Positions 3,513 through 29,184 are shown, counted from the stretch's first letter. The stretch is 64,000 bases of DNA from an uncultured Verrucomicrobiae bacterium (GCA_963815455.1 CAWFGO010000001.1:128001-192000); one strand, 5' to 3'. Numbers and translations: made by a program. Notes: generated from the letters alone by a model not told the origin.

Positions 3513-4574
3513 ATGGATTTTTTCTTCATCATCACGTCACTGCTGAAAATTCTCGGGATCCTTTTTGTCATAATTCTGCCGATGGTTTCTTACAGCGTGT
3601 ATGCCGAACGCCGCGTCAGCGCGCTAATTCAAGACCGGGTCGGACCGAACCGAGTCGGGCCATCGGGATTGCTTCAGCCAATCGCGGACATGTTCAAATT
3701 GCTGCTCAAAGAGGATTTCACACCGCGGCATGTGAACACGTTTTATTACTGGCTCGCGCCGGCGCTGGCGATGATGCCGGCCATTATTACCATCGCGGTT
3801 GTGCCGTTTGGCAGCACGCTTTTCGGCGTCCCGATGGTGATTGCCGACGTCAATGTTGGCGTTCTTTTCATCTTCGCCATCGCGTCGCTCGGCGTTTACG
3901 GGATCGTCATTGCCGGTTGGGCATCGAATTCAAAGTATCCGTTTCTCGGTGGAATCCGTTCCAGTTCGCAAATGCTTTCCTACGAGCTCTCCCTCGGGCT
4001 CGCCGTTATTCCGATCTTCATGCTCGTTGGAAATCTCCGGCTGACCAGTGTCGTTCAGTATCAGATCGACAACGGCTGGTTCATCGTCCCGTTCGTCGGT
4101 GACTGGATGAACCCATGGAAATGGCTCCTCGCCGTTCCGATGATAGTTTCGTTCGTAGTTTTCACGATCGCCATTTTCGCCGAAACAAATCGGTTGCCGT
4201 TCGATCTGCCCGAAGCCGAACAGGAGCTCGCCGGCGGTTATCACACCGAATACAGCTCGATGAAGTTCGCCCTCTTTTTTCTCGGTGAATACGCAGCCAT
4301 GATCACCGGCTCGGCGATTATCGTGACCTTATTTTTCGGTGGCTGGCATTTTCCCGGAATCCCGAATGGATCGCATGGATGGATTTTCGGTCTCATCAAC
4401 ATCGCGGTGTTTTTCACCAAAGTCGCCCTGCTGCTCTTTTTCTTTATCTGGGTTCGCTGGACCCTGCCCCGGTTTCGTTACGATCAATTGATGCGACTCG
4501 GCTGGCTCTTCTTTTTCGAAATCGCGCTGGTAAACATTTTTATTGTCGCGGGAATCCTGGCATTTGCCCACTAA
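3513..4574 (+). CDS. nuoH: NADH-quinone oxidoreductase subunit H
   Basis: ERRVSALIQDRVGPNRVG and AETNRLPFDLPEAEQEL motifs. Confidence 0.97.
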   Translation: MDFFFIITSLLKILGILFVIILPMVSYSVYAERRVSALIQDRVGPNRVGPSGLLQPIADMFKLLLKEDFTPRHVNTFYYWLAPALAMMPAIITIAVVPFGSTLFGVPMVIADVNVGVLFIFAIASLGVYGIVIAGWASNSKYPFLGGIRSSSQMLSYELSLGLAVIPIFMLVGNLRLTSVVQYQIDNGWFIVPFVGDWMNPWKWLLAVPMIVSFVVFTIAIFAETNRLPFDLPEAEQELAGGYHTEYSSMKFALFFLGEYAAMITGSAIIVTLFFGGWHFPGIPNGSHGWIFGLINIAVFFTKVALLLFFFIWVRWTLPRFRYDQLMRLGWLFFFEIALVNIFIVAGILAFAH

Positions 4575-4649
4575 ACACACGAAATATCACGAAACCGTTT
4601 AGAACTAACTTGATCACATTTTTTGTGTCCTTTCGTATGTTTCGTGGGC
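4566..4649. repeat. Family A inverted-repeat element (GCCCAC-GAAACACACGAAAT ... TTTCGTGTGTTTCGTGGGC); supplies the nuoH stop codon
   Basis: Same ends as elements at 5922-6021, 6355-6831, 8705-8813 and 14181-14261. Confidence 0.85.
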
Positions 4650-4660
4650 AATTCTGATTC

Positions 4661-5191
4661 ATGACCGTTACCGTTACACGACCCAATCTAAACTGGCGCG
4701 AGCGATTATATCTGCCCGCAATCGTGGCCGGGCTCGCCATTACCTTTAAGCATTTCAAGAACATGTTGCTCGGCCGGACCAAGGTCACGATGCAATATCC
4801 CGAGCAAAAATGGGACGCGAACATGCCCGATTATTATCGCGGCGCGCCTGCGCTGGTCCGCGACACCGACGGTCGCGTCCGATGTGTGGCCTGCCAGCTT
4901 TGCGAATTCATTTGTCCGCCGCGCGCGATCACCATCGTTCCGGACGAGATTTCTTCGACCGACCGGTTCGCCAAGGTCGAGAAATACCCGATCGAGTTCG
5001 ACATCGACATGATCCGCTGCATTTACTGCGGGATGTGCGAAGAAGTTTGTCCCGAGCAGGCGATCTTTCTGCGCAAAGATTACGCCATCACCGGGTTTAC
5101 CCGCGAAGAAATGGTGCATCACAAAGACAAGCTAATCGAAATCGGCGGCGTCATGCACGGGGTCGTTTTGAAATGGAACGCAAAGAAGTAA
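4661..5191 (+). CDS. nuoI: NADH-quinone oxidoreductase subunit I
   Basis: Two CxxCxxCxxxCP [4Fe-4S] motifs; TMQYPEQ. Confidence 0.97.
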   Translation: MTVTVTRPNLNWRERLYLPAIVAGLAITFKHFKNMLLGRTKVTMQYPEQKWDANMPDYYRGAPALVRDTDGRVRCVACQLCEFICPPRAITIVPDEISSTDRFAKVEKYPIEFDIDMIRCIYCGMCEEVCPEQAIFLRKDYAITGFTREEMVHHKDKLIEIGGVMHGVVLKWNAKK

Positions 5192-5194
5192 GAC

Positions 5195-5314
5195 TTGTCA
5201 TCCCGAACCGCGAAGACGGTGAGGGATCTCGCTATTACCTGAAATTGTCGAGCCAAGGCAAGTCGACGACTTGGGCTCCGGCTGTGAGATCCTTCACTTC
5301 GTTCAGGATGACAA
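5195..5314. repeat. Family B palindromic element (TGTCATCCYGA ... GAGATCCTTC..TTCG.TCAGGATGACA)
   Basis: Related copies near 12962-13025, 23852-24036, 26450-26481, 36576-36656, 42826-42995, 45693-45817, 53925-53966 and 54656-54728. Confidence 0.85.
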
Positions 5315-5320
5315 AGCGGC

Positions 5321-5356
5321 GGCGGCGTAATGCACGGCGTCGTCCTAGAATGGAAT
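5321..5356 (+). repeat. Second, diverged copy of the nuoI 3' end (GGVMHGVVLEWN vs GGVMHGVVLKWN at 5144-5179)
   Basis: Direct codon-by-codon comparison. Confidence 0.85.
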
Positions 5357-5373
5357 ACGACAAATGAGTTCGG

Positions 5374-5406
5374 AAATCCGAAATTCGAAATCCGAAATCC
5401 GAAATT
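5374..5406 (+). repeat. Heptamer tandem repeat (AAATCCG/AAATTCG)x4
   Basis: aaatccg aaattcg aaatccg aaatccg aaatt. Confidence 0.85.
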
Positions 5407-5413
5407 AAAGAGA

Positions 5414-5917
5414 ATGTCGCCTTTTTTATTTTGGACTTTCGCAATGCTGATGCTGGTCTTCGGCGCGGCCGTTGTCATCAATCGCAATCCGGTGGCGAGC
5501 GCGCTGAGTCTGGTCGTTTCGTTTCTCGGGCTGGCCGCCCTCTTTATGTCGCTCAATGCCTATTTCATCGGCATCATTCAAGTGCTCGTTTACGCCGGCG
5601 CGGTGATGGTCCTGTTCCTTTTCATCATCATGCTTCTCCATCTTCGCATCGAGGAACGGCGCCGGATCAACTGGACGGCGTCAGCGGGCGGAATTGTCGT
5701 CGCGCTTGTTTTGCTTGTTCAAATCTTTTTCGTGATTGGAAATTTCGAGCCCGCTCGGCAAGCGATTCCGCCACTCACAGCATCGACAATTGATGATGTC
5801 CACAACATCGGCGCTCTGCTTTTCAGCAATTACAATCTTCCTCTGCAAATCATCGGGGTTCTCATTCTCGTGGCGACCATCGGCGTCGTTCTCCTGAGCA
5901 AACGCGAACCAAGATAG
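5414..5917 (+). CDS. nuoJ: NADH-quinone oxidoreductase subunit J
   Basis: NPVASALSL and IQVLVYAGAVMVLFLFIIMLL motifs; start placed at MSPFLFW. Confidence 0.95.
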   Translation: MSPFLFWTFAMLMLVFGAAVVINRNPVASALSLVVSFLGLAALFMSLNAYFIGIIQVLVYAGAVMVLFLFIIMLLHLRIEERRRINWTASAGGIVVALVLLVQIFFVIGNFEPARQAIPPLTASTIDDVHNIGALLFSNYNLPLQIIGVLILVATIGVVLLSKREPR

Positions 5918-5921
5918 TTTA

Positions 5922-6021
5922 GCCCACGAAAATACGCGAAATGACACGAAAACAGAAAATGTCAGGAAATTGCCGATGTTTATCTCTGACATTTTCGCGT
6001 TCTTTCGAGTGTTTAGTGGGC
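5922..6021. repeat. Family A inverted-repeat element (empty)
   Basis: gcccacgaaaatacgcgaaatgacacgaaa ... tttcgcgttctttcgagtgtttagtgggc. Confidence 0.85.
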
Positions 6022-6034
6022 ACAAAACAATAAC

Positions 6035-6355
6035 ATGATCACGCTGGGCGATTATCTCATGGTCAGCGGCGCGCTGTTCGCCATCGGATTCGCCGGCGTG
6101 ATGCTGCGACGCAATCTCATCATTATTCTGATGTCGTTGGAGTTGATGTTGAACGCATCAAATCTATCTCTGGTAGCTTTCTCGCGATTCCGGATCGATC
6201 CCGCCGGCTTGCCGAATTACAGCGCTCAGGTCTTTGTCTTTTTTATCATCACCGTTGCCGCGGCCGAAGTTGCTGTCGGGCTGGCCATCATCGTCGCTCT
6301 CTATCGCGCCCGCCAAACGACGCATGTGGAAGATCTCAGGAGTTTGAAATTTTAG
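6035..6355 (+). CDS. nuoK: NADH-quinone oxidoreductase subunit K
   Basis: [17 protein letters not shown] and [11 protein letters not shown] motifs. Confidence 0.97.
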
Positions 6356-6831
6356 CCCACGAAACACACGAAATGACACGAATGGAAGAAAAGGGAGAAC
6401 TCGTTTACAAAGATGAAAGCTACGCCAGCATCGGCGCGTGTTTCGTCGTCTACAAAGAGAAAGGGCTGCGGATTTCTCGAGCCGGTTTATCACGAGTGCC
6501 TGGAAATCGAGTTCGAATCCCAAAGGATCCCGTTTCGGTCAAAACCACCCCAAACGCTTCAATATCACGGGCGGACCCTTATCCAGACATTTCATCCCGA
6601 TTTCATTTGCTATGATAAGATCATCCTCGAAATCAAAGCTGTCTCCGTACTATGCGATGAGCATCGCGCTCAGGTGCTTAACTATCTCAGCGCGACGGGA
6701 TGCAAATTGGGGCTGCTCGTCAATTTTGGTCATTGGCCAAGAATCGAATACGAACGCCTCCTTCCTAGAAAACATGAACCCGCCGATTTCCGTCTCTGAA
6801 AATTTCGTGTCCTTTCGTGTGTTTAGTGGGC
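6355..6831 (+). mobile_element. Family A element carrying a GxxExxY gene
   Basis: Family A inverted ends enclose the GxxExxY ORF; a second copy of the nuoK 3' end follows. Confidence 0.7.
6382..6799 (+). CDS. GxxExxY family protein (PD-(D/E)XK nuclease-like), one frameshift near 6460
   Basis: MEEKGELVYKDESYASIGACFVVYKEK joins GCGFLEPVYHECLEIE ... PDFICYDKIILEIKAV ... AQVLNYL ... GLLVNFG. Confidence 0.88.
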
Positions 6832-6836
6832 AAAAA

Positions 6837-6902
6837 ATGACTCTTCTTTGCCGTGCCCGACAAACAACCCACGTGGAAGATCTGCGTAGCCTGAAATTTT
6901 AG
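6837..6902 (+). repeat. Mini-ORF (21 aa) containing a synonymously recoded duplicate of the nuoK 3' end; abuts the nuoL ATG
   Basis: 6852-6902 encodes [16 protein letters not shown], identical in peptide to 6305-6355. Confidence 0.9.
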
Positions 6903-8705
6903 ATGGAAGCCGAGAACCTTGTTCCCTGGATCGTGTTGCTCGCGCCGCTGGCCTCGGCGGTCGTGATCACGCTCTTCGCCCGTCGGTCACAAGGGTTGAG
7001 CAGTTTTCTTTCCGTCACTGCTGTGCTCGGGAGTTTTGCCGGGAGCTGCTGGATTTTTCAGCGCACCGGCGATTTCACAGTTGAAATCAATTGGATCGAC
7101 ATCAGCGGCGGGCTCAAGGCGCCGCTCGGGCTCACTCTCGATTATTTGTCCAAGACAATGCTGGTTCTCGTTTCTGGTGTGGGAGCGATTATCCACATTT
7201 ATTCGCTTGGTTACATGCGCGGCGAAGAGGGCAAATCGCGTTATTTCGCCGGTCTGTCGCTCTTCATGTTCGCCATGCTCGGGATCGTTCTGGCCAACAA
7301 CTTCGTGATGTTATTTATTTTTTGGGAGCTGGTGGGATTCACCTCCTACGTGCTCATCGGTCACTGGTTCGATCGTCCGGCGGCGGCAGACGCGGCCAAG
7401 AAGGCGTTCATCACCAATCGTCTCGGCGATTTCGGATTTATGCTTGGCATCCTGATGATTTGGGTGCCGACCGGCTCGGTCGTTTTTCCCGACATCAACG
7501 AGCGATTGTCGATCCTGACGAACAATCCCGCGTATCTGACGGTAGCCGCGCTTCTGATCTTCTGCGGCGCAGTCGGAAAATCCGCGCAATTTCCGCTGCA
7601 CGTCTGGTTGCCAGACGCGATGGAAGGTCCCACGCCGGTCTCAGCGTTGATCCACGCGGCGACGATGGTTGCCGCAGGCGTTTACATGCTGGCCCGCGTC
7701 GCGTTCATCATTCAAGCGTCGGAAACAGCGCTCATGGTCATTGCCTGGATCGGGACGATCACGGCGCTCATGGCCGCGCTGATTGCCACCCAACAGGACG
7801 ACATCAAGCGAGTCCTGGCTTATTCCACGCTTTCGCAGCTCGGTTACATGGTGATGGCCATCGGTCTGGCCTCGAGCGAAGCAGCGATGTTTCACTTGTT
7901 CACCCACGCGTTTTTCAAAGCGCTCCTGTTCCTCGGCGCCGGCTCGGTCATCATCGCGCTGCATCACGAACAGGACATTTGGGAAATGGGCGGCCTCTGG
8001 CGCAATCTCAAGATTACGTTTGTCACATTTCTCATCGGCGCGTTGGCCCTCATGGGTTTGCCGCCGTTCAGCGGTTTTGTCAGCAAGGATGCGATCCTTG
8101 CTCTGGCCTACGAGCATAACAAATCGATCTTCGTGCTCGCCCTGGGCACCGCGTTCTTGACCGCGTTTTATGTCACTCGTTTGCTCATGGTTGTTTTTCT
8201 TGGGCACCCGCGCGGACACGCGGCCCGGGTCAGCAAAGAATCGACGTTTGTCATGACGGGGCCGCTCGTCGTTCTCGCGCTCCTCGTGATTGCGAGCAGT
8301 TTCGCTGCGTTCAACAATCATTTCCTTGTTCTTCCAAGCCAGGGCGCATTTTTAGAGACCGTTCCTTTGTTCGCCACCGGCGCGCTCGTCTTCGGCGTCG
8401 GGCTCGCCTTTCTGTTTTATCGCGGACGCGCCACCGAAGCTGTCTACGTCGATCTTCTCCGCCGCCGTTTTTACATCGACGATTTTTATCAATGGCTCAT
8501 CAACTGGACCCAGGAACTGCTCGCCCGCGTCGCTGCGTTCTTCGATCGCTGGATAATCGACGCCGGCGCGGTCCGCGGAGTGAGCGGCGGCACCTGGGGA
8601 GTCGGCGCGCTGTTGCGATTGGTTCAAGTAGGTAATTTGCAGGCTTACGCGTTTCTCTTCGGCCTGGGCATCGTCGCGCTCATTTATTTTGCCGTTTTCC
8701 GATAG
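6903..8705 (+). CDS. nuoL: NADH-quinone oxidoreductase subunit L
   Basis: GKSAQFPLHVWLPDAMEGPTPVSALIHAATMV; HLFTHAFFKALLFL. Confidence 0.97.
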   Translation: MEAENLVPWIVLLAPLASAVVITLFARRSQGLSSFLSVTAVLGSFAGSCWIFQRTGDFTVEINWIDISGGLKAPLGLTLDYLSKTMLVLVSGVGAIIHIYSLGYMRGEEGKSRYFAGLSLFMFAMLGIVLANNFVMLFIFWELVGFTSYVLIGHWFDRPAAADAAKKAFITNRLGDFGFMLGILMIWVPTGSVVFPDINERLSILTNNPAYLTVAALLIFCGAVGKSAQFPLHVWLPDAMEGPTPVSALIHAATMVAAGVYMLARVAFIIQASETALMVIAWIGTITALMAALIATQQDDIKRVLAYSTLSQLGYMVMAIGLASSEAAMFHLFTHAFFKALLFLGAGSVIIALHHEQDIWEMGGLWRNLKITFVTFLIGALALMGLPPFSGFVSKDAILALAYEHNKSIFVLALGTAFLTAFYVTRLLMVVFLGHPRGHAARVSKESTFVMTGPLVVLALLVIASSFAAFNNHFLVLPSQGAFLETVPLFATGALVFGVGLAFLFYRGRATEAVYVDLLRRRFYIDDFYQWLINWTQELLARVAAFFDRWIIDAGAVRGVSGGTWGVGALLRLVQVGNLQAYAFLFGLGIVALIYFAVFR

Positions 8706-8813
8706 CCCACGAAACACACGAAATGACACGAAAAGGAGAAACAGATCTGATTTACGGCGACTCGCTGATTCCTATTTCTGAAAATTCCGTGTCTTTTCGT
8801 GGGTTTCGTGGGC
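8705..8813. repeat. Family A element, internally deleted GxxExxY-element derivative
   Basis: Family A ends. The interior reads GETDLIYGD (cf. GELVYKD) and tctgaaaattccgtgtc (cf. tctgaaaatttcgtgtc near 6795-6811). Confidence 0.75.
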
Positions 8814-8838
8814 AAGCAAATCCCCTCCTCTTTCTCTG

Positions 8839-10320
8839 ATGCTTCTTTTCCTCATATTTTGCCCGATCGTTGCGGCGTTCGTGATCATGGCCGGCGCGCC
8901 GGCCCGAAAAACGGCGTTGCTCGCTTCGTGGTTGATGCTCGCGTCCGCGGCCGCACTCTTCGCTCAATTCGCGCAGCTCGAACCGAAGTTTCAGTTTGTC
9001 AGTTCATTTCCAATTTCTCCCGAGTTGCATCTCGGCTTTACCGTTGGGCTCGACGGTTTGAGCCTGATCATGGTGCTGCTGGCCGCCATCGTCACGGTCG
9101 CGGCCGTCTGGTTCGCCGGTAAGATCGACAATCACGAAAATGCATTCTACGCCTGCCTGCTTTTTATTTCCGGCGGCGCGATCGGAGCATTTTCGTCGCT
9201 CGATTTGTTTTTCTTTTATGCCTTTCACGAACTCGCGCTCATCCCGACATTCCTGCTGATCGGAATCTGGGGGAGCGGAAATCGCGTGGCCGCGGCGTGG
9301 AAGATCACAATTTATCTCGCAGTCGGTAGCTTCATCTTGCTGCTTGGCTTGATCCTGCTTTACCAAAGCGTCCCGGCCGCATCGCGGAGTTTCGATATTC
9401 GCGAGCTACAGGCTGCGATCGCGACGCGGCAGATTCCGGCGAATGCGCAGCACAACATTTTCCTGCTCCTGCTTGTCGGCTTCGGAATTCTCGTCTCGCT
9501 GTTTCCGTTCCATACCTGGGCGCCGGAGGCGTACGCATCCGCGCCCGCCCCGGCGGCAATGCTGCATGCCGGCGTCCTGAAAAAATTCGGGCTTTACGGT
9601 TTGCTGCGGATTGCCCTCCCGCTGCTCCCGGAAGGAGCGCGGCACTGGAGCCATCTGTTAATCGTGCTGCTGCTCGGGAATATCATTTACATCGGGTTGG
9701 TCACCATCGCGCAAAAACGACTCGATTGGATGCTTGGTTACTCCAGCGTGATGCACATGGGTTACATTTTTCTCGGGATCGCCAGTGCCAACGTTCTCGG
9801 CACCACTGGGGCCGCGACTCTGATATTCGCGCACGGGCTTTCCATCGCGTTGCTGTTCGCGCTGGCGGGGGAAATTCGCACCCGTACCGGCACGCTCGTG
9901 TTCAGCGATCTCGGCGGTCTCGCGAAAGTGATGCCATTCGCCGGTCTCGCCTTCGGGCTCGGCGCATTCGCGGCCATCGGTCTTCCCGGCTTCGCCAACT
10001 TCGCCGGCGAAATCATGATCTTTTTCGGCGCGTTCCGAACCGGCTGGGATATGACGCGGTTCCACACGTTTCAAATCGCGACCGCGCTGGCGCTCTGGGG
10101 CGTGGTGATCTCAGCCGTTTATATGCTCCGCGCGTATCGAAATGCATTCATGGGTCCGCCGAATGAGCGCTGGAACAAGCTTGTCGATCTTCGTCCCGGC
10201 CTGCGCATCCCGATCGCGTTGCTGGTCGCCGCGCTTCTCTGGATCGGATTTTATCCCCAATCGTTTATCCGCATTCTTGCGCCGGCGCCGAGCACTTATT
10301 CCGCATCCGCAAAGCCATGA
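8839..10320 (+). CDS. nuoM: NADH-quinone oxidoreductase subunit M
   Basis: GLDGLSL, FPFHTWAPEAYASAP and YSSVMHMG motifs. Confidence 0.95.
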   Translation: MLLFLIFCPIVAAFVIMAGAPARKTALLASWLMLASAAALFAQFAQLEPKFQFVSSFPISPELHLGFTVGLDGLSLIMVLLAAIVTVAAVWFAGKIDNHENAFYACLLFISGGAIGAFSSLDLFFFYAFHELALIPTFLLIGIWGSGNRVAAAWKITIYLAVGSFILLLGLILLYQSVPAASRSFDIRELQAAIATRQIPANAQHNIFLLLLVGFGILVSLFPFHTWAPEAYASAPAPAAMLHAGVLKKFGLYGLLRIALPLLPEGARHWSHLLIVLLLGNIIYIGLVTIAQKRLDWMLGYSSVMHMGYIFLGIASANVLGTTGAATLIFAHGLSIALLFALAGEIRTRTGTLVFSDLGGLAKVMPFAGLAFGLGAFAAIGLPGFANFAGEIMIFFGAFRTGWDMTRFHTFQIATALALWGVVISAVYMLRAYRNAFMGPPNERWNKLVDLRPGLRIPIALLVAALLWIGFYPQSFIRILAPAPSTYSASAKP

Positions 10321-11741
10321 TTGCCGCGCCCTCACTCGAAATTGCCGTGCTCGTTCTGGGCATGCTGCTCCTGATGTGGGAAGCGTTTGCCACCAAGACC
10401 GACAAGCGCGTTTTGGCCGTTACTGGAATTGTCAGCCTCACGCTCGTGCTGGCAGCGTCGTTCTTTTTGATTCCAAATATCGAACCCGGACAGATCAGCG
10501 GTTTCCGTGGCTTTTGCACCGTCGATCCGCTGTCGATCTTCTTTAAGCGATTTGCGCTGGTTACGACCATTTTCGTGCTGGTGATGATGATCGATTACGC
10601 GCCGGTCGTGCGCAGTTGGTTCCCCGGCGGGACTGCGCAAGCCGGCCTCGGTGAATTTTTCTCGATCCCGATCTTTACCTGCGCCGGACTGATGTATCTG
10701 GTCTCGGCCGTCGATTTCATTTTCATTTTCGTCGCGCTCGAGCTGGTCACGATCTCATTTTATGTCCTGGTCAGTTTCACTCGACGAAACCCGCTGACGC
10801 TCGAAGCCGGAGTGAAATATCTGGTGTTGAGCGCCCTCTCGACCGGATTTCTGGTTTACGGGATTACCTGGATCTTCGGAGCAACAGGCGAAACGAATCT
10901 GCAACGCATCGCCGAGGCTTTGGCGAACCCCGAAACCGAACATGGCGCCGCGCTCTTTGGCATGGTGCTCGTCCTCATCGCGCTCGGATTCAAAATCGCA
11001 GCGGTGCCATTCCAAATCTGGGTGCCCGATGTTTACCAGGGCGCGCCAACGCCGGTGACAGCGTTTCTTTCCGTCGGCTCGAAAGCGGCGGGGTTCGTCG
11101 TTTTGCTGCGCGTGTTGCAACCGTTCTCGATGATGCCGCAAATGCACCGGTTGATCGTCCTGCTCGCGTTCCTCACCCTGATTTACGGAAATCTGGCCGC
11201 GTTGCCCCAAACAAATTTGAAACGACTGCTGGCTTATTCGAGCATCGCTCACGCCGGCTATTTGCTCGTCGGCGTGGCCTGCTTCGACGGACCGGCAGTC
11301 GGGTTCTATCTCATCGCGTATCTAATTATGACGCTTTTGAGCTTTGCTGTGCTGGTCATCGTTTCGCAACAAACCGGCGAACAGATCGCCGATTTCAACG
11401 GCCTGGCCACGCGCTCGCCCTTTCTCGCCTTCGCCATGTTAACCGGAATGATCTCACTCGCCGGCGTGCCATTCACCGCCGGGTTTCTCGGAAAATTCTT
11501 TATCTTCTACGCCGCCATCGCGCACCGACAGATCGCGCTGGTGGTCGTTGGCGTGATCACGGTCGGCTGCGGATTTTATTATTATCTCAAAGTGATCCGC
11601 GCGATGTATTGGCAACCCGCACCGAACACCGACAAGATCCCAGTCAGCGCCCTGTCACGTTTCGCGATCAGCGCCTTGATTATCGCCACGATCTGGCTCG
11701 GCGTTTATCCGCAGCCGATCCTCGATGCGTTAAAGCGGTAG
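10317..11741 (+). CDS. nuoN: NADH-quinone oxidoreductase subunit N
   Basis: EAGVKYL, FKIAAVPFQIWVPDVYQGAP and KRLLAYSSIAHAGY motifs. Confidence 0.96.
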   Translation: MIAAPSLEIAVLVLGMLLLMWEAFATKTDKRVLAVTGIVSLTLVLAASFFLIPNIEPGQISGFRGFCTVDPLSIFFKRFALVTTIFVLVMMIDYAPVVRSWFPGGTAQAGLGEFFSIPIFTCAGLMYLVSAVDFIFIFVALELVTISFYVLVSFTRRNPLTLEAGVKYLVLSALSTGFLVYGITWIFGATGETNLQRIAEALANPETEHGAALFGMVLVLIALGFKIAAVPFQIWVPDVYQGAPTPVTAFLSVGSKAAGFVVLLRVLQPFSMMPQMHRLIVLLAFLTLIYGNLAALPQTNLKRLLAYSSIAHAGYLLVGVACFDGPAVGFYLIAYLIMTLLSFAVLVIVSQQTGEQIADFNGLATRSPFLAFAMLTGMISLAGVPFTAGFLGKFFIFYAAIAHRQIALVVVGVITVGCGFYYYLKVIRAMYWQPAPNTDKIPVSALSRFAISALIIATIWLGVYPQPILDALKR

Positions 11742-11760
11742 CATCTGCGATCTGACCTCC

Positions 11761-11809
11761 GGAGGGTCGTGCTTCTGCACGACCAGGACGTGAAGAATCA
11801 CGTCCCTCC
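11761..11809. repeat. Family E double-hairpin element (GGAGGG ... CCCTCC)
   Basis: Related copies at 13312-13367 (inside the GST gene) and 44002-44050; half copy near 14273-14297. Confidence 0.8.
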
Positions 11810-11817
11810 GAACCGGA

Positions 11818-12429
11818 TCAGTCGCTCAGTTCGACGTTCCAGTAGGCAAGATCGACAAAGTGCCGCCAGCTTTCGTGTTGCGGCGCGGAGAACGTGACAT
11901 GCACGAATGGACGCCACTTCGGCCGCTTCGGTTTGCGAATGAGAATCATGTGCGCTTCCTGCGGAAGCCGGTTCCCCTTGCGGGTATTACAGGGGATACA
12001 CGAGCAAACCACATTTTCCCACGTCGTCGTCCCACCCCGGTCGCGCGGGACCACGTGATCAAGATTCAGATCGTTCCGATCGAACGTGTGACCGCAATAC
12101 TGGCAGGTGTTCTTGTCCCGTTCGAAAACGTTGTGCCGGGTAAATTTCACTTCCTTTTTCGGCAACCGATCGAAAAACAGCAGCACGATCACCCGCGGGA
12201 CCCGGATCTTGAACGAAATCGTCGGGACCAGCTCATGGGCGGGCGCGTTAGCCGAAAAATCGCGCCAGCTATCGAAATCGTGGGTAAGAAAATTGTTTGG
12301 CTCGTCCGACGAAACGACATGAGCGTGTCCCGCATAGACAAGCGAGAAAGCCCGCCGGGCAGAACAGATATTCACCGCCTGCCAGAGGCGATTCAGCACC
12401 AGAACCTGACTGTTCAACGAGGATTGCAA
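11818..12429 (-). CDS. HNH endonuclease family protein
   Basis: VLVLN N-terminus; RDKNTCQYCG ... DHVVPRDRGG..TWENVVCSCIPCNTRKGNR. Confidence 0.92.
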   Translation of the reverse strand: MQSSLNSQVLVLNRLWQAVNICSARRAFSLVYAGHAHVVSSDEPNNFLTHDFDSWRDFSANAPAHELVPTISFKIRVPRVIVLLFFDRLPKKEVKFTRHNVFERDKNTCQYCGHTFDRNDLNLDHVVPRDRGGTTTWENVVCSCIPCNTRKGNRLPQEAHMILIRKPKRPKWRPFVHVTFSAPQHESWRHFVDLAYWNVELSD

Positions 12430-12702
12430 ATGTGTCCCTCCTACCGCTTTGCGCCCGCACTACCGCGAGCATTTACGGAAATGGGCCGACAGGTACCACC
12501 CGCGTTTTTCATTGTCAACGCGGAGGGCCCAGCCTGTTCTGGTGCCTGCGCTGTAGCCGCGGTCGCTGACCGCGGCCGCGCGGATTATCTCTGTTCCTTG
12601 CGGCCGATCCGCCTTCGCTGGGCTTCGGCGTGACGGGCACGGCCACCTCTACACCTACGAAATCTGACTTGTCGATCTTGTATTCGATCATAAGGTCGAA
12701 GC

Positions 12703-12906
12703 ATGAGCGGGCAAGGTTCGGCGGGCAATGTACTGGCGGCGCTCTGCAGTTTCTTTATCCCGGGGCTGGGACAATTGCTCCAGGGACGATTGCTGATGGC
12801 GATCTTCCAGTTTTGTCTGGCGGCGGTTCTCTGGTTCGTTCTGCTCGGCTGGGTGATTCATTTGTGGTCGATCCTTGACGCGGCGCTGTTCAAGCCGGCA
12901 ACGTGA
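12703..12906 (+). CDS. Small membrane protein
   Basis: 67 aa hydrophobic ORF with SFFIPGLGQL motif. Confidence 0.75.
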   Translation: MSGQGSAGNVLAALCSFFIPGLGQLLQGRLLMAIFQFCLAAVLWFVLLGWVIHLWSILDAALFKPAT

Positions 12907-13048
12907 CGTCGCATCCGGATTGACGGCGTCTGACACAACGACCTACAGGGGGATTACATTAAGAGATGTCTCCCAGCCTCCGCGTAAAGCTACGGCGCGG
13001 CAGGCGACTCCGCTCGACATGACAAGCGATTCGTGTCCATTCGTGGTT

Positions 13049-14091
13049 ATGACCGCGCAGTTTCCTAGCGAGCAGACGGAGTCCGGGGAATTTAAGCGTC
13101 AGGAAGACGCGTTTCGGGAATGGATCTCGAATGATGGATCAACTCCCTATCCCGCTACGGCTAATCGTTATCATCTTTACGTTTCGCTGGAGCCTGCCCG
13201 TGGGCGAGCCGGACGGTGATATTTCGGAAGCTGAAAGGACTCGAAGAAGCGATCGGCCTGACGATTGTCGATCCTGTTCGGGACAACAATGGCTGGGCGT
13301 TCCGCGATCCTGGAGGGGCGACCTCCGTGTCGTCCTCCTGCCCGGACGTGCCGAAGCACGTCCCTCCGTCGACTGATCCGGTTAACGGGTTTCATTATCT
13401 GAGCGAAGCCTACGCGGCGACCGATCCGAATTACGACGGGCGCGTCACTGTGCCGGTACTGTGGGACAAGGAAACAAGAAAGATCGTTAACAATTGCGAG
13501 GACGATATCTGTCGCATGTTCAACGACGCGTTCAACGAGTTTGCCCGGAACAAAGACGTCGATCTTTTTCCGGATGAGATTGAGGCGGAGCACATGAAGC
13601 TTTGCGAATTCATTCACGACAACGTAAACAACGGCGTTTATCGGGCCGGGTTCGCCACTCGCCAGCGAGCTTACGAGATTTCCTGCCGAAAACTCTTTGA
13701 GGCACTCGACGAACTGGAACAACGCCTGTCGAAAAGCCGCTATTTGTTTGCGAATCCCGGTGGAGAGAGCGGGAAGCTGTCAGCTTCCCCTACAGTTGGG
13801 AATCGAATTGTCGAAGCGGACTGGCGATTATTTTGCACGCTGGTCCGGTTCGACGTCGTCTATCACGGGCATTTCAAATGTAACATTCGCCGCATCATCG
13901 ATTACCCGAACCTGCAGGGTTATCTGATGGATTTGTATCAGCGGCCTGGGATCGCGCAGACCGTGAACTTCGATCACATCAAGCGTCATTATTATATGAC
14001 GCACACCGAGATTAATCCGACGCGCATTGTTCCGCTTGGTCCGGCACTCGACCTCACGACGCCGCATGGGCGGGAGGCCATGAAGAATTGA
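13049..14091 (+). CDS. Glutathionyl-hydroquinone reductase / omega-like glutathione S-transferase (YqjG-like), frameshift near 13190, two in-frame palindrome insertions
   Basis: GEFKRQ..FREW, RYHLYVS..CPWA, RVTVPVLWDK, NNGVYRAGFA and HIKRHYY motifs. Confidence 0.9.
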
Positions 14092-14261
14092 GCCCGCGAA
14101 TTACGCGAATGGGCGCGAATGAAAAACGGATTGATCCGCCAAACACGCCAAAAGACCCCAAATAGGAACGGATTTGCTTCCCCCCTAAACACACTAAAAG
14201 GCGCGAAAATGTTCCAGGCACTTGTGATAAACCGGTTCGTCATTTCGTGTGTTTCGTGGGG
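14092..14261. repeat. Cluster of family A-like arms, including a minus-strand mini element with a GxxExxY gene fragment
   Basis: Reverse complement of 14211-14238 matches 6479-6506 at 25 of 28 nt (EPVYHKCLE vs EPVYHECLE). Confidence 0.85.
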
Positions 14262-14381
14262 TTAGTTCCCCCGGACGGGACAGAGCCCATCCCTCCAGGT
14301 TCGCCGAACGGATGCGAAAGCTATAGAGGCGGCGAGATTCATGAATTGACGGAGTCTTCCTGTTAAGATAGCGGTGGGGTC

Positions 14382-15200
14382 GTGAGACGGACTGCCTCAA
14401 CCCTGTCGATCCTGCTGGCCTTGAGCGCGTTCGCGTTTGCCGGGCCCGAAAGCTATTCCGGTAAGGAAATGAAGCAGGTAGCGCGCTACGAAACGCCCTC
14501 CTGTCCGAACTGGACCGGGTTCTACATTGGCGGCTTTGGCGGATACAAGTTTGGAGTGATCGATCCAACCCTTCGGTTGGGTGGATTCTGGGAAGACTCA
14601 CAGCCGGACTTGGAGACGTTAAAGTCCCGCGCCGACGACAACCTCGACACCAGCGGCGCGGAGCTGGGAGGATTGATCGGTTACAATCATCAGTGGAACA
14701 ACTGGGTGCTGGGTCTGGAGGCCGCCGGCAGTTATCTCTGGTTGCGAGATTCGCACGGGGACGGTGATTTCTTCTCATCAAACGGGAACCAGTTCTTCAC
14801 TGAGACTTCATTCAAGACGCACTACCTGTTCACGGTCGGACCACGCATTGGTTATGCCTTATGCAAGTGGTTGCCATACGTCACCGGGGGGCTGGCGGTG
14901 GGAGACCTGGATTTCCACCAGCAATTTCACGCGCCGGACTTCTTTCCCGAAATAGCCGGCGGCACAAAAAGCGAGACGAATGCCGGGTGGTTTGTTGGCG
15001 GCGGGCTGCAATATGCCCTAACCGATCGGTTTCGTGAGGGACAGAATTTTCCCGCCTGGAGCGTCAGAGTCCAATATCAATACGTCGATCTTGGATCGAC
15101 GAGTTTCGATCACGATTCGGTGCCCTCCAGTTACCCGAGCGGCAGCAAAGTGGAATTGCGGGAGGACAACGCTTCGTTCGCCATCATCTACGGTTTTTAA
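14382..15200 (+). CDS. Outer-membrane beta-barrel protein (Omp25/Omp31-like)
   Basis: Signal peptide, NWTGFYIGGFGG, LPYVTGGLA, C-terminal aromatic residue (YGF). Confidence 0.85.
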   Translation: MRRTASTLSILLALSAFAFAGPESYSGKEMKQVARYETPSCPNWTGFYIGGFGGYKFGVIDPTLRLGGFWEDSQPDLETLKSRADDNLDTSGAELGGLIGYNHQWNNWVLGLEAAGSYLWLRDSHGDGDFFSSNGNQFFTETSFKTHYLFTVGPRIGYALCKWLPYVTGGLAVGDLDFHQQFHAPDFFPEIAGGTKSETNAGWFVGGGLQYALTDRFREGQNFPAWSVRVQYQYVDLGSTSFDHDSVPSSYPSGSKVELREDNASFAIIYGF

Positions 15201-16634: not shown

Positions 16635-16658
16635 CATCTGATGCATTATCATCAGATG
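16635..16658. promoter_or_regulatory. Inverted-repeat operator (CATCTGATG-N6-CATCAGATG) overlapping the TA operon promoter
   Basis: Perfect 9-bp inverted repeat; TTGACT at 16625 and TATCAT at 16647; ends on the antitoxin ATG. Confidence 0.7.
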
Positions 16659-16895
16659 ATGCGAACCACCCTTGAGATCGATGATGATGTTCTGGCCGCC
16701 GCCAAGGAACTAGCGGCCCGGCAAAATACCACCGCCGGAAAAATGATCTCTGAAATGGCCCGGCGCGGGATTCAATCCCGGCACGGCAAAGGATCGTCCA
16801 AGCACAGGAATGGATTCGAGATCTTGCCAGCAGACAAACGAGTTGTTACGCCCGATCTCGTCCAGAAGCTTCTTGAAGAATCGGTCGAGCCGTGA
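16656..16895 (+). CDS. vapB: VapB-type antitoxin (RHH/CopG-like)
   Basis: MRTTLEIDDDVLAAAKELA; overlaps the PIN toxin start. Confidence 0.85.
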   Translation: MMRTTLEIDDDVLAAAKELAARQNTTAGKMISEMARRGIQSRHGKGSSKHRNGFEILPADKRVVTPDLVQKLLEESVEP

Positions 16896-17320
16896 TTGCA
16901 CTGCTCGACATTAACATGCTCATTGCGCTCTTCGATGCGGCTCATGTGCATCATGGCGCCGCCCACGAATGGATGACGAAACACCGCTCGTTCGGTTGGG
17001 CAACCTGTCCGATTACCGAGAACGGGTGCGCTCGAGTGATGTCGCAGCCTAACTATCCGGGCCATCTTCCGGTGGCGGAGATTGTGCGCCGGGTTGCGGC
17101 GGCAACGTCGGAACGCGACCACAGGTTCTGGGAGGATTCGATTTCGTTGTGCGATCCGAAGCGGTTCGAACCAGGTCTAATACTGACGTCGCGAAATCTA
17201 ACCGATGTTTATTTGCTCGCGTTAGCGGTTGAAAAAGGGGGCCGGCTTGTCACTTTCGATCGCGCCATACCCTCGCGGGCGATACGAGGAATCAAAGATC
17301 GACATCTCCTTGTATTGTAG
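16892..17320 (+). CDS. vapC: PIN-domain toxin (VapC family)
   Basis: LLDINMLIAL ... TCPITENG ... TDVYLLALA ... LVTFD acidic PIN residues. Confidence 0.9.
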   Translation: MIALLDINMLIALFDAAHVHHGAAHEWMTKHRSFGWATCPITENGCARVMSQPNYPGHLPVAEIVRRVAAATSERDHRFWEDSISLCDPKRFEPGLILTSRNLTDVYLLALAVEKGGRLVTFDRAIPSRAIRGIKDRHLLVL

Positions 17321-21288: not shown

Positions 21289-21433
21289 CTGGGGAGCACA
21301 GGCTGCCAGCCTGTTGTTTTCGGCAGCTTGCCGAAAAGCTCTTCGAACACACAATGTTTAGTCGGCTACGACGTCGAGCAAATGTCGTCGGCAAGCTGCC
21401 GCCGACTGCAGGCTGGCAGCCTGCGCTCCCCAG
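21289..21433. repeat. Family C palindromic element (CTGGGGAGCRCAGGCTGCCAGCCTG ... CAGGCTGGCAGCCTGYGCTCCCCAG)
   Basis: Related copies at 22635-22768, 26252-26382 and 30685-30824; partial copy near 24935-24983. Confidence 0.9.
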
Positions 21434-21494
21434 AATCGATATGCATCCTAAAAAAATTTTGCGCACGGTTGTCGATCCTGCGTAAAATCACTGG

Positions 21495-22562
21495 ATGCTT
21501 CAGACGGCGCAGCGCAAAGGGAAGAAATCCGCCGCTAAATCTGCGCAGGCAAAAACAGCGAAGAAGCCCCGGATCCACGAGCGATTCGTCGAGGCGTTTC
21601 GCTGGATGCTTTTAGCCCGAATTCTCGAGGACAAACTGGCCAGCCTTTATCGCGGCGGCATGATTGTCGGCGGCGTTTACCTCGGCAAAGGCCAGGAAGC
21701 GGTCAGCGCGGCGTGCGGCATGTTCTTGAAAAAGGGCGACGTGTTTGCGCCGCTCATTCGCGACCAGGCCGGCCGGTCGGCGTTCGGTGAACCGTTGCTC
21801 GACGTGGTGCGCACGTATCTCGGCTCGGTAAAAGGACCGATGCGCGGCCGCGACGGCAATATTCATCGAGGACGCCCGGGAGAAAATCAGCTGGCCATGA
21901 TCAGCCATTTGGGGGCGATGACGTCGGTCATTACCGGAAAGCTGCTGGCGAAACGGATGAAAGGCGAAAAGGACTTCGTCGGGCTAACGACTTTGGGTGA
22001 AGGGGGGATGCAGACCGGGGCGACGCATGAAGGGCTGAACATCGCGGCGGTTGAGCAAGTGCCCCTGGTGGTCGTAGTCACGAACAATCATTGGGCCTAC
22101 TCGACCCCTAACGAACGCGAATTCGCCTGCGCGAACCTGGTCGAGCGCGCCAAAGGCTACGGGTACGAAGGGCATACGATAGACGGCACCGACTTGAACC
22201 AATGCCTTGAGATTATCGAGACTGCAGTGCAGCGCGCGCGGGCCGGCCGGCCACCGCAAATGGTGGTCGCGGAGGTCTTGCGCCTGGCGGGGCACGGCGA
22301 ACATGATGACGCCAGCTACGTTCCGCCGGAGATGAAGAACGAGCCTTTCGCCCAGGATCCGGTTCAGCGAACGGAAAAATTCATTCTTGAGCACGGGCTG
22401 CTTGACCGCGACGGGTTGCAACAGATGCGCGCGGAGATCGCAAAGCAAGTCGATGAAGCGGTGACGACGGCACAGCAAGAAGAGGCGCCGAACGCGAATG
22501 AAGAAAATTGGTGCGCCTTATCGCGACGCGAACTGGCCGGCCGCGGCGAAGCCGGCGAATGA
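21495..22562 (+). CDS. 2-oxoacid dehydrogenase E1 alpha subunit (TPP-dependent)
   Basis: GQEAV, TPP motif GEGG...NNHWAYST, RLAGHGEHD. Confidence 0.92.
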   Translation: MLQTAQRKGKKSAAKSAQAKTAKKPRIHERFVEAFRWMLLARILEDKLASLYRGGMIVGGVYLGKGQEAVSAACGMFLKKGDVFAPLIRDQAGRSAFGEPLLDVVRTYLGSVKGPMRGRDGNIHRGRPGENQLAMISHLGAMTSVITGKLLAKRMKGEKDFVGLTTLGEGGMQTGATHEGLNIAAVEQVPLVVVVTNNHWAYSTPNEREFACANLVERAKGYGYEGHTIDGTDLNQCLEIIETAVQRARAGRPPQMVVAEVLRLAGHGEHDDASYVPPEMKNEPFAQDPVQRTEKFILEHGLLDRDGLQQMRAEIAKQVDEAVTTAQQEEAPNANEENWCALSRRELAGRGEAGE

Positions 22563-22864
22563 CGAAGCTCGAATGACGAAATCCGAAGGAATGTCCTAAT
22601 GACGAATGACCAAAAGGCGCGCATTCGCGTAACTCTGGGGAGCACAGGCCGCCGGCCTGTGGGATTCGGCCGCTGGCCGAATGCATTTGGGTGCAAATAC
22701 GTTGAGGAACCTAAACAGATTCGCGGCAAGCTGCCGCGAAGTACAGGCTGGCAGCCTGTGCTCCCCGGACACAAAACCCGTTCGCCAATTTTTTATCATG
22801 GCTTCGACATTCGTCGTTGGAATTTCGTCATTGTATCGGCATTCGGATTTCGTGCTTCGTCATT
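22557..22864. repeat. GAATGAC-heptamer inverted arms enclosing a nested family C element
   Basis: Left arm gaatgacgaagctcgaatgacgaaatccgaa; right arm ttcggatttcgtgcttcgtcatt; family C copy at 22635-22768. Confidence 0.8.
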
Positions 22865-22870
22865 TTCCCC

Positions 22871-23839
22871 ATGAGCGTCACGTACTTGGAGGCTATTCGC
22901 GAGGCGCAGGCGAAGTTGCTGCGTGAAGACGAGCGCGTTTTCATCTACGGACAGGACATCGCGGGAAAATTCGGCGGCGCATTCAAAGCGACGAAAGGTT
23001 TGGCGGCAAAATTCCCAGGGCGAGTGCTGAACACGCCGATCAGCGAAGACGCCATGGTAGGAACGGCAATCGGCGCCGCGCTGGAAGGAATGCGGCCGAT
23101 CGTGGAGATGCAGTTTGCCGACTTTTCCAGTGTCGCGCTCAACCAGATCTTAAACAACGCCGGCACCCATTATTACCGAACAAATATACCTGTGCCGATC
23201 ACGGTGCGGTTGCCATCGGGTGGAACCAAAGGAAGCGGCCCGTTTCACAGTCAGAGCATGGAAGGGCTCTATTCGCATTATCCGGGGGTGATCGTCATGA
23301 CCCCGGCAACTGTCGAGGACGCCTACACGATGTTGATCGATGCGGTCCGGATCGACGACCCGGTCGTCTACTGCGAGCACAAGTATTTGTATTACCATCT
23401 CAAGGCCGACAAGCTGCCGACCGAAGGCTTGCCAACCGGCAAGGCGCGGATTGTCCGCCCGGGACGCGATCTCACGATCGTAACTTACAGCGCGATGGTC
23501 CACGAGTCGCTCGCAGTGGCTAACGAATTGCACAGGGACGGATTCGAGATCGAAGTCGTCGATCTGCGAACGGTGAAGCCGCTCGACACGACAACGGTGC
23601 TGGCATCGGTCGCGCGAACCGGCCGGCTGTTGTGCGTCGGCGAAGCGTTCCCCTGGGGCGGCGTCACCGCGGAAGTCATCGCCCGCGTCGCGGCTGAAGG
23701 TTTACATCTGCTTGATGCCGCGCCGGCGCGCATCAACGCGAAGGACACGCCGATTCCCTATCACCCGAACCTCTGGATCGAACACCGGCCGAATCAAAAG
23801 ACGATCGCGGCCAAGGCTCGCGCTGTATTAGCGGAATGA
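22871..23839 (+). CDS. 2-oxoacid dehydrogenase E1 beta subunit
   Basis: GRVLNTPISE, RPIVEMQFADF, GPFHSQS, DPVVYCEHK. Confidence 0.93.
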   Translation: MSVTYLEAIREAQAKLLREDERVFIYGQDIAGKFGGAFKATKGLAAKFPGRVLNTPISEDAMVGTAIGAALEGMRPIVEMQFADFSSVALNQILNNAGTHYYRTNIPVPITVRLPSGGTKGSGPFHSQSMEGLYSHYPGVIVMTPATVEDAYTMLIDAVRIDDPVVYCEHKYLYYHLKADKLPTEGLPTGKARIVRPGRDLTIVTYSAMVHESLAVANELHRDGFEIEVVDLRTVKPLDTTTVLASVARTGRLLCVGEAFPWGGVTAEVIARVAAEGLHLLDAAPARINAKDTPIPYHPNLWIEHRPNQKTIAAKARAVLAE

Positions 23840-24045
23840 TATCAATCTGGCGTCATCCTGAGCGAAGCGAAGGACCTGGCAAAAGGTATTGCGCTTCCGC
23901 GTGTGCAAACGCATTATCTGCCGGTGCAAACGCGACGAACGCTTGCGCGATTGTAGCTTCGACTGTGAGGTCCCTCGGTCCGAGCCGGACTGGCATTGTC
24001 TGCGCGGCTCCCGCCACGGCAGGCAGGCGGGATGACAAACGATCA

Positions 24046-24156
24046 TAGATTATGCCTCAAGTTCCAATCACCATGCCGCAGCTCGGCGAATCGATGGCCG
24101 AGGCAACGATTGTTTCAATCAAAGTGAAGCCGGGCGACAAAGTCGCCGCCGATCAG
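24046..24156 (+). repeat. 111-bp direct repeat of the E2 gene 5' end (other copy 24987-25097)
   Basis: 107 of 111 nt identical; encodes MPQVPITMPQLGESMAEATIVSIKVKPGDKVAADQ. Confidence 0.95.
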
Positions 24157-24791
24157 TCGGGAATAGACGGATCGCGGTTGATCACCCGCGATCGGTTAAT
24201 GCGTCGCGGGCGCGTTCTGTAACGTCCCGAGCGTTCTCTTACATGAAACCCGATCTGTTTCGGTAGCGGCTCCGGTTCTGGTGGCGGATCGATGATGTCC
24301 ATCACGCGCTGAAGGATGGTAACAATAGCGGCTTCATGGACATCGAGGCGTTCCTTTAATTCCTTCTCGAGGGCGGACAGTTTGCGCGCCAGTTGGTTCG
24401 TGTCGTTCAGGACCCGCCGCATGGCAATGAACGCGCGCACGACAAACACGCTCATCTGAGCGGCCTGGGTGCTATTAAGTACGTTTGCCGCCATGATCGC
24501 GCCGTGCTCGGTGAAAGCATATGGGCGGCGGCGGCGGCCGCCATGGCTCAAACTTGAGGTGCCAAATTGGTACTTCAAGTCTTGCCATTCGGTGGCAGAA
24601 ATCTGGAACATAAAGTCTTTCGGAAAACGATCGCGATTACGCTTAACAGCCCGATTCAGCGCCTTGGTCTGGACGCCGTAGACTTGGGCCAAGTCAGAAT
24701 CCAGCATGACCTTCTCGCCACGAATTTCGTGGATCAGGCTCGCGAGTCGCTCTACCGCCAACGCCAATCGTTTGTCCGTTCTTGGCATCAT
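24153..24791 (-). CDS. ORF6N (KilA-N-like) domain DNA-binding protein
   Basis: IRGEKVMLDSDLAQVYGVQTKALNRAVKRN..RFPKDFMFQ ... PYAFTEHG; coiled coil; IGF tail. Confidence 0.92.
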   Translation of the reverse strand: MMPRTDKRLALAVERLASLIHEIRGEKVMLDSDLAQVYGVQTKALNRAVKRNRDRFPKDFMFQISATEWQDLKYQFGTSSLSHGGRRRRPYAFTEHGAIMAANVLNSTQAAQMSVFVVRAFIAMRRVLNDTNQLARKLSALEKELKERLDVHEAAIVTILQRVMDIIDPPPEPEPLPKQIGFHVRERSGRYRTRPRRINRSRVINRDPSIPD

Positions 24792-24992
24792 GCGACCGTA
24801 GTGACAATCAGGCCGAAAGAGAAGCGATTTGCTGGTCAGAAGGTTGAGGCTCCGAACTGGCGTTTCATTCTCTGCCACCCTAGAATTGCGGCACGCGTTG
24901 ATCCGATTAAGATGTGCCACAGAATAGAACATTCGGCAGGCGAGACGCCTGCCGGCCTCACAGGCAGGATGCCTGTGCTCCGGAAGTAGATT

Positions 24993-27044: not shown

Positions 27045-27063
27045 TCGCCGTTCACATGATCTA

Positions 27064-28404: not shown

Positions 28405-28428
28405 AGTCGGACAACGGCGGCTTCGATC

Positions 28429-28498: not shown

Positions 28499-28549
28499 AA
28501 GAGATCGCGATATTGCGAGCTCGCTCACAATTTTATTTTTTGCGAATCG

Positions 28550-29181: not shown

Positions 29182-29184
29182 TTA

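Follow-up and report, generated by a model that had tools for sequence, protein, structure and literature searches.

What is a single small gene of the GxxExxY family doing between nuoK and nuoL, and why do inverted repeats like those that bracket it recur along the same operon? The question is raised by a 64,000-nt stretch of DNA from an uncultured Verrucomicrobiae bacterium (GCA_963815455.1, CAWFGO010000001.1:128001-192000), referred to here as the window. It is part of a 3.6-Mb genome in 7 contigs (G000); a homologue in one genome of the same family carries the database label Chthoniobacterales bacterium. The part studied holds the nuoG-N operon, then an HNH gene and then a GST-like gene; the nuo and GST names are presumptive, going by the protein sequences. 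The original prediction regarded the inverted repeats, called family A, as miniature inverted-repeat transposable elements (MITEs) deleted from an element that encodes GxxExxY, and suggested GxxExxY as their mobilising enzyme. We conclude that the gene and its two ends form a cassette that is almost certainly a mobile unit.

The cassette, its ends and its gene

The cassette of ~476 bp comprises a left end, GxxExxY as its sole gene and a right end. Each end consists of three C(A/G)CGAA-like hexamers at a pitch of 9-10 bp (CACGAA in family A), and the two ends are mutually inverted. Five family A copies, after nuoH, nuoJ, nuoK, nuoL and the GST gene, were found where the original prediction had placed them; family A occupies 4/7 nuoG-N junctions of this genome. 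The copies and the parts of the full cassette are as follows.

4566..4649, + strand: mini copy of 84 bp at nuoH-nuoI; it overlaps the end of nuoH, and its left end provides the nuoH stop codon
5922..6021, + strand: mini copy of 100 bp at nuoJ-nuoK, retaining the 3' end of the GxxExxY gene
6355-6831, + strand: full cassette behind nuoK, with the gene
6355..6382, + strand: left end of the full cassette, three CACGAA hexamers, overlapping the nuoK stop and with an in-frame ATG at 6373
6373..6799, + strand: GxxExxY gene (TIGR04256/PF13366), with a one-base frameshift near 6460-6466
6804..6831, - strand: right end of the full cassette, an inverted copy of the left end
8705..8813, + strand: mini copy of 109 bp at nuoL-nuoM, read as a deletion, in place, of the full cassette found at this site in G001
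14180..14261, - strand: inverted mini copy of 82 bp after the GST-like gene, with a 28-nt piece from mid-gene

The copy behind nuoK carries a whole GxxExxY gene, as had been claimed. Its open reading frame (ORF) is full length and scored 111.7 bits on TIGR04256 (cut-off 35), with no match to any other NCBIfam model; one extra base puts the N-terminus (ATG 6373/6382) and the remainder in different frames. PF13366 was found on all 120 listed homologues. Frameshifts occurred in 12/118 compared coding regions of this genome (14 in 109 kb, two of them in GxxExxY genes). Two frameshifts in two 0.4-kb genes exceed the genome rate, and they may or may not be real. The second of these genes lies in another GxxExxY cassette (C2:225066-225491 of G000) behind a tgt-like gene; it has its own end type and a one-base frameshift, and its dispersed gene-less relatives gave 29 overlapping matches.

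A crude ORF scan showed that 38 of 46 cassettes begin -16 to +32 nt from a same-strand stop. The cassette gene is promoterless, lies sense-oriented directly behind operon stop codons and is probably expressed from the host transcript; the 7/46 cassettes without an upstream same-strand gene speak against this. When left and right ends were compared, the hexamers were identical in 893/936 and the spacers in 233/321, a difference that is partly due to the construction of the pattern, and the left/right differences showed no G-U bias (86 vs 100). Because the spacers vary more than the hexamers and do so without G-U bias, the ends would be easier to see as arrays to which a protein binds on DNA than as an RNA stem under selection. 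Immediately beyond the left end, in the nuoK tail (6340-6355), there is a ~10-nt A/T-rich motif, and a similar one occurs just within the right end, at the gene stop (6794-6806); chance, a target preference or part of a cutting signal could account for them.

Ends and gene were found together far beyond this operon. In 75 loci of relatives, 47/52 GxxExxY ORFs are enclosed by an inverted repeat whose score exceeds that of the best control, and the same holds for 63 of the 76 evaluable homologue loci (80 taken, 4 dropped for short flanks). The latter come from many phyla, including Acidobacteriota, Planctomycetota, Cloacimonadota, Myxococcota, Bacteroidota and Pseudomonadota, and the end type tracks the protein clade across phyla. 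Within G000, a weight matrix trained on 9 of the 10 window ends found 30 sites of at least 16 bits, 9 of them training ends, and none in the reversed-genome control.

We then tallied ends and gene in 201 family genomes, one of which is flagged unpublished (G008, without a match), using an end pattern with two mismatches since a stricter pattern was too narrow. All 12 genomes with a gene of at least 77% identity have family A ends, and at least 5 ends were present in 10/12 of them vs 18/189 others; the genomes are kin and not independent, so that 2x2 p-values overstate the association. In genus g10, with the gene's own two ends subtracted, a modest excess was left (p=0.025). The genome-wide co-occurrence that the original prediction had proposed to look for was therefore found, with exceptions. 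No TIGR04256 match was found in G102, with 11 ends, or in G187, with 18, two fragmented assemblies of ~90% completeness, and G022 has 35 ends and only a 62%-identical relative. These ends may be remnants after gene loss or reflect assembly gaps; they do not support strict dependence on the gene. The observation that was to refute the prediction, ends without GxxExxY or GxxExxY without ends, was thus made in part, in the two genomes with 11 and 18 ends; GxxExxY elsewhere has cognate ends.

Filled, empty and deleted junctions

Filled and empty polymorphic sites, which the original prediction had also proposed to look for, were found at the nuo junctions of 20 relatives and in genus g10. Among the 20 relatives, nuoJ-K was empty in 16, held family A in 3 and another repeat in 1; nuoK-L was empty in 11 and held full GxxExxY in 6, a family A mini in 1 and other sequence in 2; and nuoL-M was empty in 17, with one full copy, one mini and one other. 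G001, of the same genus, mirrors G000, being full at nuoL-M and mini at nuoK-L. At nuoJ-nuoK, G166 and G230 hold full copies and G011 a partial (half-deleted) one. Of the 55 g10 genomes, 41 were evaluable at nuoL-M (the tallies include three genomes flagged unpublished, which, like G008, enter into no other claim): 20 were empty, 4 held full family A and 17 were otherwise filled. Full, mini, scar and empty states are scattered across the g10 host tree. At nuoK-L (L261-L330), about 20 g10 genomes retain just a 10-15 nt scar of one cassette end, which is the final stage of cassette decay.

Metagenomes gave 80 cognates, of which 73 carry the two family A ends, at a distance that is nearly always 471-479 bp. 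By site, 30 were at nuoL-M, 21 at nuoK-L, 11 at nuoJ-K and 11 at non-nuo sites in at least two unrelated neighbourhoods, and 7 had one flank only. Of five DNA sequencing runs (shares 0.05-0.07), four were compared, whose contigs come from relatives and not from this strain; in one relative's contig, 8701 is followed after three letters by 8839, which is an empty nuoL-M allele. One or two cognate copies were present per genome, broken copies were common, and this query matched 7/72,556 plasmid and 0/50,697 phage records. Ends and gene travel as one from site to site and across genera and phyla. At nuoF-G, at least seven relatives (L073, L074, L081, L084, L086, L089, L068) hold yet another GxxExxY clade, whose ends are of a type of their own, and gene-less pairs of these ends were seen at nuoH-I in three of those genomes.

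These distributions bear on whether the repeats could be regulatory hairpins that the host keeps for tuning nuo mRNA, with a domesticated nuclease. The presence of family A at four of seven nuoG-N junctions and the purifying selection on the gene (below) would agree with such a role, as would the stable folding of three of the four minis, which are far more stable than shuffles (z -5.3 to -7.9), the GST-gene copy not being so (z -1.5). No Rfam match at gathering score was found within 4300-14400. We consider this explanation very improbable, given that the junctions are empty in most relatives, that occupants differ between close hosts, that gene tree and host tree disagree, that broken copies are common and that the ends have no G-U bias.

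Aligned copies form a nested deletion series in which both ends are kept, and 3-5 nt microhomologies were seen by eye at several joins. The nuo minis are very probably internal deletion products, and most of them are best read as remnants left in place where relatives retain the full cassette. Both ends of the 8705 copy align co-linearly with the full copy that G001 has at this junction. Its interior alone scored 26 against a shuffle maximum of 31; the gene traces claimed for it therefore rest on the alignment and the orthologous full copy, and do not stand out from shuffles by themselves. No gene trace was found in the interior of the nuoH-nuoI mini. The match reported for the 28-nt piece in the minus-strand copy proved exact: 14211-14238 is 25/28 identical to 6479-6506, and an overlapping 28-mer had no other genome match within 7 mismatches. 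This copy is nested at 14090-14300 among other repeat-type ends, including two sister GxxExxY end types, and similar mosaics occupy intergenic space in G022 and G108.

For dispersed minis, 30/35 ends in G022, 30/39 in G108 and the paired copies of G000 were examined. Gene sequence was detectable in 2/39 mini interiors tested and most interiors were unique, so that the dispersed minis may or may not have originated by deletion; this counts against the favoured reading. A few small sets in G022, G108 and G000 share interior and flank at distant loci, and hence minis are sometimes copied. Like MITEs, the minis are short, non-coding and flanked by terminal inverted repeats; no cognate transposase of a known family was found, the sole gene matching TIGR04256 alone in NCBIfam. 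The MITE claim is supported insofar as the ends are those of the GxxExxY cassette and the nuo minis its internal deletions, and is not supported insofar as it would imply an amplified, non-autonomous family that duplicates its target.

Carried flanks, exchanged cassettes and displaced gene tails

A fixed target duplication was not found in 46 cassettes, in which the median flank similarity was 14.5 vs 14 in the control (excess in 3), and a general long target duplication was rejected on this comparison. Overlaps at three nuo sites were, by eye, roughly 0, 4-5 and ~10 nt; old insertions may have lost a short target duplication. These results are relevant to a classical pairing of insertion sequence (IS) and MITE, the explanation nearest to the wording of the original prediction, in which GxxExxY, as a new transposase, would make precise cuts at the terminal repeats and also move minis in trans. 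The terminal inverted repeats, constant length and single gene are what such a pair would have, and the small mini subfamilies of G022, G108 and G000 have been copied. The variable overlaps and the absence of a fixed duplication count against it, as do the strong sense bias behind stop codons, the one or two cognate copies per genome, the near absence from plasmid and phage records and a protein that is a single ~125-residue nuclease domain. The flanks carried along with the cassette weaken it already, and we regard it as improbable.

Sequences that bear on movement within the window are listed below.

6305..6355, + strand: nuoK 3' tail in current use, closest to that of G009 (7 differences of 51); it probably came in from another lineage together with the cassette
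6838..6856, + strand: stub that, from its resemblance, is like the nuoL start seen after the cassette in relatives; it joins the displaced nuoK tail
6852..6902, + strand: the nuoK tail a second time, adjoining the nuoL ATG, and probably the resident tail that was displaced
8814..8833, + strand: flank on the right of the nuoL-nuoM copy, recurring next to the 14180 copy (17/20 identical)
14160..14179, - strand: flank carried over from the nuoL-nuoM site (17/20 identity)

Copies that have reached a new site bring 10-40 nt of flank from the donor with them. L377/L397 have 27 nt of the nuoK tail at a non-nuo site, and L371/L375 have ~30 nt of the left and 37 nt of the right nuoL-M flank, with the nuoM start, also at a non-nuo site. 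The 14180 copy combines the nuoL-M right flank with the mid-gene piece that the 8705 copy has lost. In addition, a nuoK-tail-like left flank was present in 25/30 nuoL-M copies. Here the reading as carried flank is open to objection: a nuoK-tail-like motif also occurs just inside the right end, and the motif in the left flank at nuoL-M could belong to the element itself or reflect a target preference.

Cassettes are swapped at one site, and this happens independently of the host genes. The GxxExxY tree rejects the host clade G000+G001+G013 (p-AU 2.5e-53, AU denoting the approximately unbiased test); a test on G009+G011 (p 0.04) was not used, as the frameshifted G009 tail had been left unmasked. 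At 16 nuoL-M loci with both flanks, the synonymous divergences of nuoL and nuoM correlated at 0.82, and those with the gene between them at 0.39 and 0.45, the lower values coming partly from the shorter length of the gene and from saturation (median pS, the synonymous difference, 0.70 vs 0.56). In the pair L346/L373 the flanks differ by 0.15/0.09 and the gene by 0.57 in synonymous divergence. It also counts against these comparisons that metagenome contigs can be chimeric.

The two nuoK tails (last 51 nt, on either side of the cassette) encode the same 16 residues and have 10 base differences, which give 9 synonymous and 0 replacement codons. The upstream tail is nearer to G009 and the downstream tail nearer to sister G001, by a margin of a few bases; the identity of the 6305..6355 tail to G001 is 30/45 in the last window vs 35-40/45 elsewhere in nuoK. 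Because a neutral duplicate would not diverge without replacements, the evolution of the tails as nuoK most likely took place in two separate genomes. On the simplest reading, a one-sided homologous join brought the donor tail, the cassette and the donor nuoL start, and the resident tail was pushed downstream. Displaced tails or heads were seen in G000, G018, L343 and L418; a scan of the whole genome for duplicated gene tails was too noisy and was not used. Given the lack of a fixed duplication, the carried flanks, the swaps at one site and the displaced tails, the cassette is likely to move by recombination or repair and not by precise transposition.

Another hairpin repeat family lies at nuoI-J (5197-5297), followed by a decayed second nuoI tail (5320-5367). 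This is the displaced-tail layout seen at nuoK, and G001 has the repeat there without a second tail. A short tandem array of a 7-nt unit precedes nuoJ at 5370-5405; it is of the type that brackets four-helix-bundle genes at other places in this genome (L339), discussed below.

Other features of the window lie downstream. The HNH endonuclease gene (11818-12429, - strand) follows nuoN, is kept in most relatives at 83-92% identity and was below cut-off on IscB and Cas9 models. The GST-like gene (13053-14091) is apparently split by a 2-base insertion near 13190; these bases are absent from relatives' contigs, and the split appears to be an assembly error or to mark a pseudogene. A VapC-type PIN gene (16641-17320; TIGR00028, 99 bits) and the small ORF upstream of it are probably a toxin-antitoxin pair. 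A ~48-54 nt repeat family with four inverted doublets occurs at 21289-30835; its layout resembles that of doublets formed by repetitive extragenic palindromic (REP) elements, known as REPINs.

The nuclease, its possible role and known systems

The model of the G011 homologue (pLDDT 91) is a single small PD-(D/E)XK domain of ~125 residues. Cas4 SSO0001 and RecB/lambda-exonuclease-like nucleases were the top fold matches, Cas4 SSO0001 first (Foldseek E 4e-4; VIA Z 8.1, root-mean-square deviation 3.4 over 105 residues); Cas4 SSO0001 differs in having 202 residues vs about 125, at 18-19% identity. The protein has a D...ExK core and QxxxY, a motif linked to RecB/Cas4. Across 67 intact, distinct cognates there is no variation at E30, D70, K82, Q94 or Y98, and E80 is present in 66/67. 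The predicted fold and the D...ExK active site place GxxExxY in the PD-(D/E)XK nuclease superfamily, as the original prediction had stated. The median ratio of nonsynonymous to synonymous divergence (dN/dS) was 0.065 among the cognates (898 pairs) and 0.043 in a sister clade (38 pairs). As judged from these sequence comparisons, the predicted active site is intact and under purifying selection, and selection would appear to act for an active nuclease despite the frequent broken copies and the fact that most relatives lack a cassette at any one site. A role as Holliday-junction resolvase is no more than a lead: the top sequence match, T7 endonuclease I, was not significant (E 0.48-0.93), and Hjc was mid-list by fold (Z 5.9).

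On balance, and with modest confidence, we favour a selfish ~476-bp cassette that is copied by nuclease-started recombination or repair, with GxxExxY as the starter. In this mechanism the GxxExxY protein would bind the hexamer arrays and nick or cut at or near them, and host recombination or repair would then copy the cassette. Homology on both sides would give a homing-like swap; homology on one side only would leave a displaced gene tail behind; and microhomology alone would place the cassette, together with carried flank, at a new site. Minis would result when copying is aborted or slips between microhomologies; they would decay to scars and may act as landing pads for re-filling.

Several observations weigh against the starter role. 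Both GxxExxY genes of this genome, the only ones it has, are frameshifted. The fold scores are middling and do not show function, restriction-enzyme matches reaching Z 7.1-7.7, and the T7 endonuclease I match falls short of significance. Unrelated repeat families occupy the same nuo junctions. Furthermore, TIGR02436 four-helix-bundle genes, whose proteins are not known to be nucleases, have the same layout: all 12 tested (of 20 genome hits) have inverted arrays above control. These arrays (L331-L342) are inverted, made of 6-8 nt units, and bracket each gene. This way of life may thus be possible without a nuclease, and if the four-helix cassettes move alike, the host may move the cassette and GxxExxY may be cargo with another selfish role.

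The cassette, real and mobile, could then be a passenger of host recombination (e.g. uptake of relatives' DNA, helped by breaks at the inverted repeats), its nuclease being kept for addiction, for cutting rival alleles or for processing transcript stems. Besides the four-helix layout and the several unrelated families that enter the same junctions, such an explanation gains from the duplicated upstream tail (5320-5367) beside the second repeat family at nuoI-J and from ends that persist without the gene. Homology-facilitated illegitimate recombination yields one-sided joins with displaced tails without any enzyme of the element. We think a passenger unlikely, if a serious candidate, for the following reasons. 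First, the end sequence follows the protein clade across phyla and unrelated loci, which linkage alone could also bring about. In addition, end counts are higher where the cognate gene is present. Finally, the lack of G-U bias gives no sign of selection on an RNA stem.

Among known systems, a free-standing homing endonuclease comes closest to how the cassette would work, and a TIRtron or an IS to how it is laid out. The available text of PMC2988022 describes the free-standing homing endonucleases of phage T4 (seg/mob) as one nuclease gene between conserved operon genes, often promoterless, with filled and empty alleles and flank co-conversion through recombination repair. The GxxExxY gene likewise sits between conserved genes with filled and empty alleles, is inherited discordantly with the host and shows flank co-conversion. 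It differs in that inverted hexamer arrays enclose the gene, that end pairs without it are left behind and that unrelated sites are reached as well, and in that GxxExxY is chromosomal with a minimal Cas4-like PD-(D/E)XK domain, not GIY-YIG or HNH. The cognate cassette sits at three unlike junctions and at non-nuo sites, which argues against one long recognition site.

The cassette shares with REPtrons, TIRtrons and REPINs, which involve the transposases RAYT and TIRYT, a small gene flanked by inverted repeats, a family dispersed as gene-less doublets and a repeat type specific to the protein type, so far as the available texts of PMC3733652 and PMC3116915 go. Unlike them, it has no HUH/tyrosine transposase. 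RAYTs are single-copy and not self-mobile according to the same texts, whereas the GxxExxY cassette occurs at several sites and is swapped between hosts; REPs are short palindromes, whereas the GxxExxY ends are direct hexamer arrays. The analogy with RAYT drawn in the original prediction therefore breaks down, both on the type of enzyme and on the mobility of the gene itself. IS elements with MITEs resemble the cassette in their internal deletion series of a coding element and in gene-less elements of 70-300 bp with terminal inverted repeats of 15-30 bp near coding sequence, as the available part of PMC3733652 describes them. The cassette differs from them in its lack of a known transposase or fixed target duplication, its carried flanks, its mostly unique mini interiors and its scarcity on plasmids and phages.

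The available text of PMC3424549 lists PF13366 with 'Unknown' function and multiple horizontal transfers, its entry being silent on flanking repeats or mobility, and that of 10.1101/2021.01.26.428298 places a GxxExxY gene beside a reverse transcriptase. A link of GxxExxY to repeats or mobility was not found in the literature searched, which did not cover most subscription journals and supplements. The selfish cassette is real and apparently unpublished. As a tentative proposal, to which we give somewhat less than an even chance, it would represent a class of chromosomal mobile element not described before, whose minimal Cas4-like nuclease would recognise the hexamer arrays of its own ends and start repair-based copying; the cassette would home into alleles and into remnants made up of ends alone, hop to new operon junctions with pieces of flank and seed intergenic inverted repeats across many phyla.

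GxxExxY/PF13366 is a large and widely transferred family, with >7,000 relatives from one search, and this locus offers it a testable job with defined substrates, namely the ends, the minis, the empty junctions and the clade-specific hexamers. If the proposal is true, it would account for where the abundant intergenic inverted repeats of soil Verrucomicrobiota and of other phyla come from, would show a way for selfish DNA to rewrite the ends of core genes, nuoK among them, and would add a route to mobility without transposase, integrase or reverse transcriptase.

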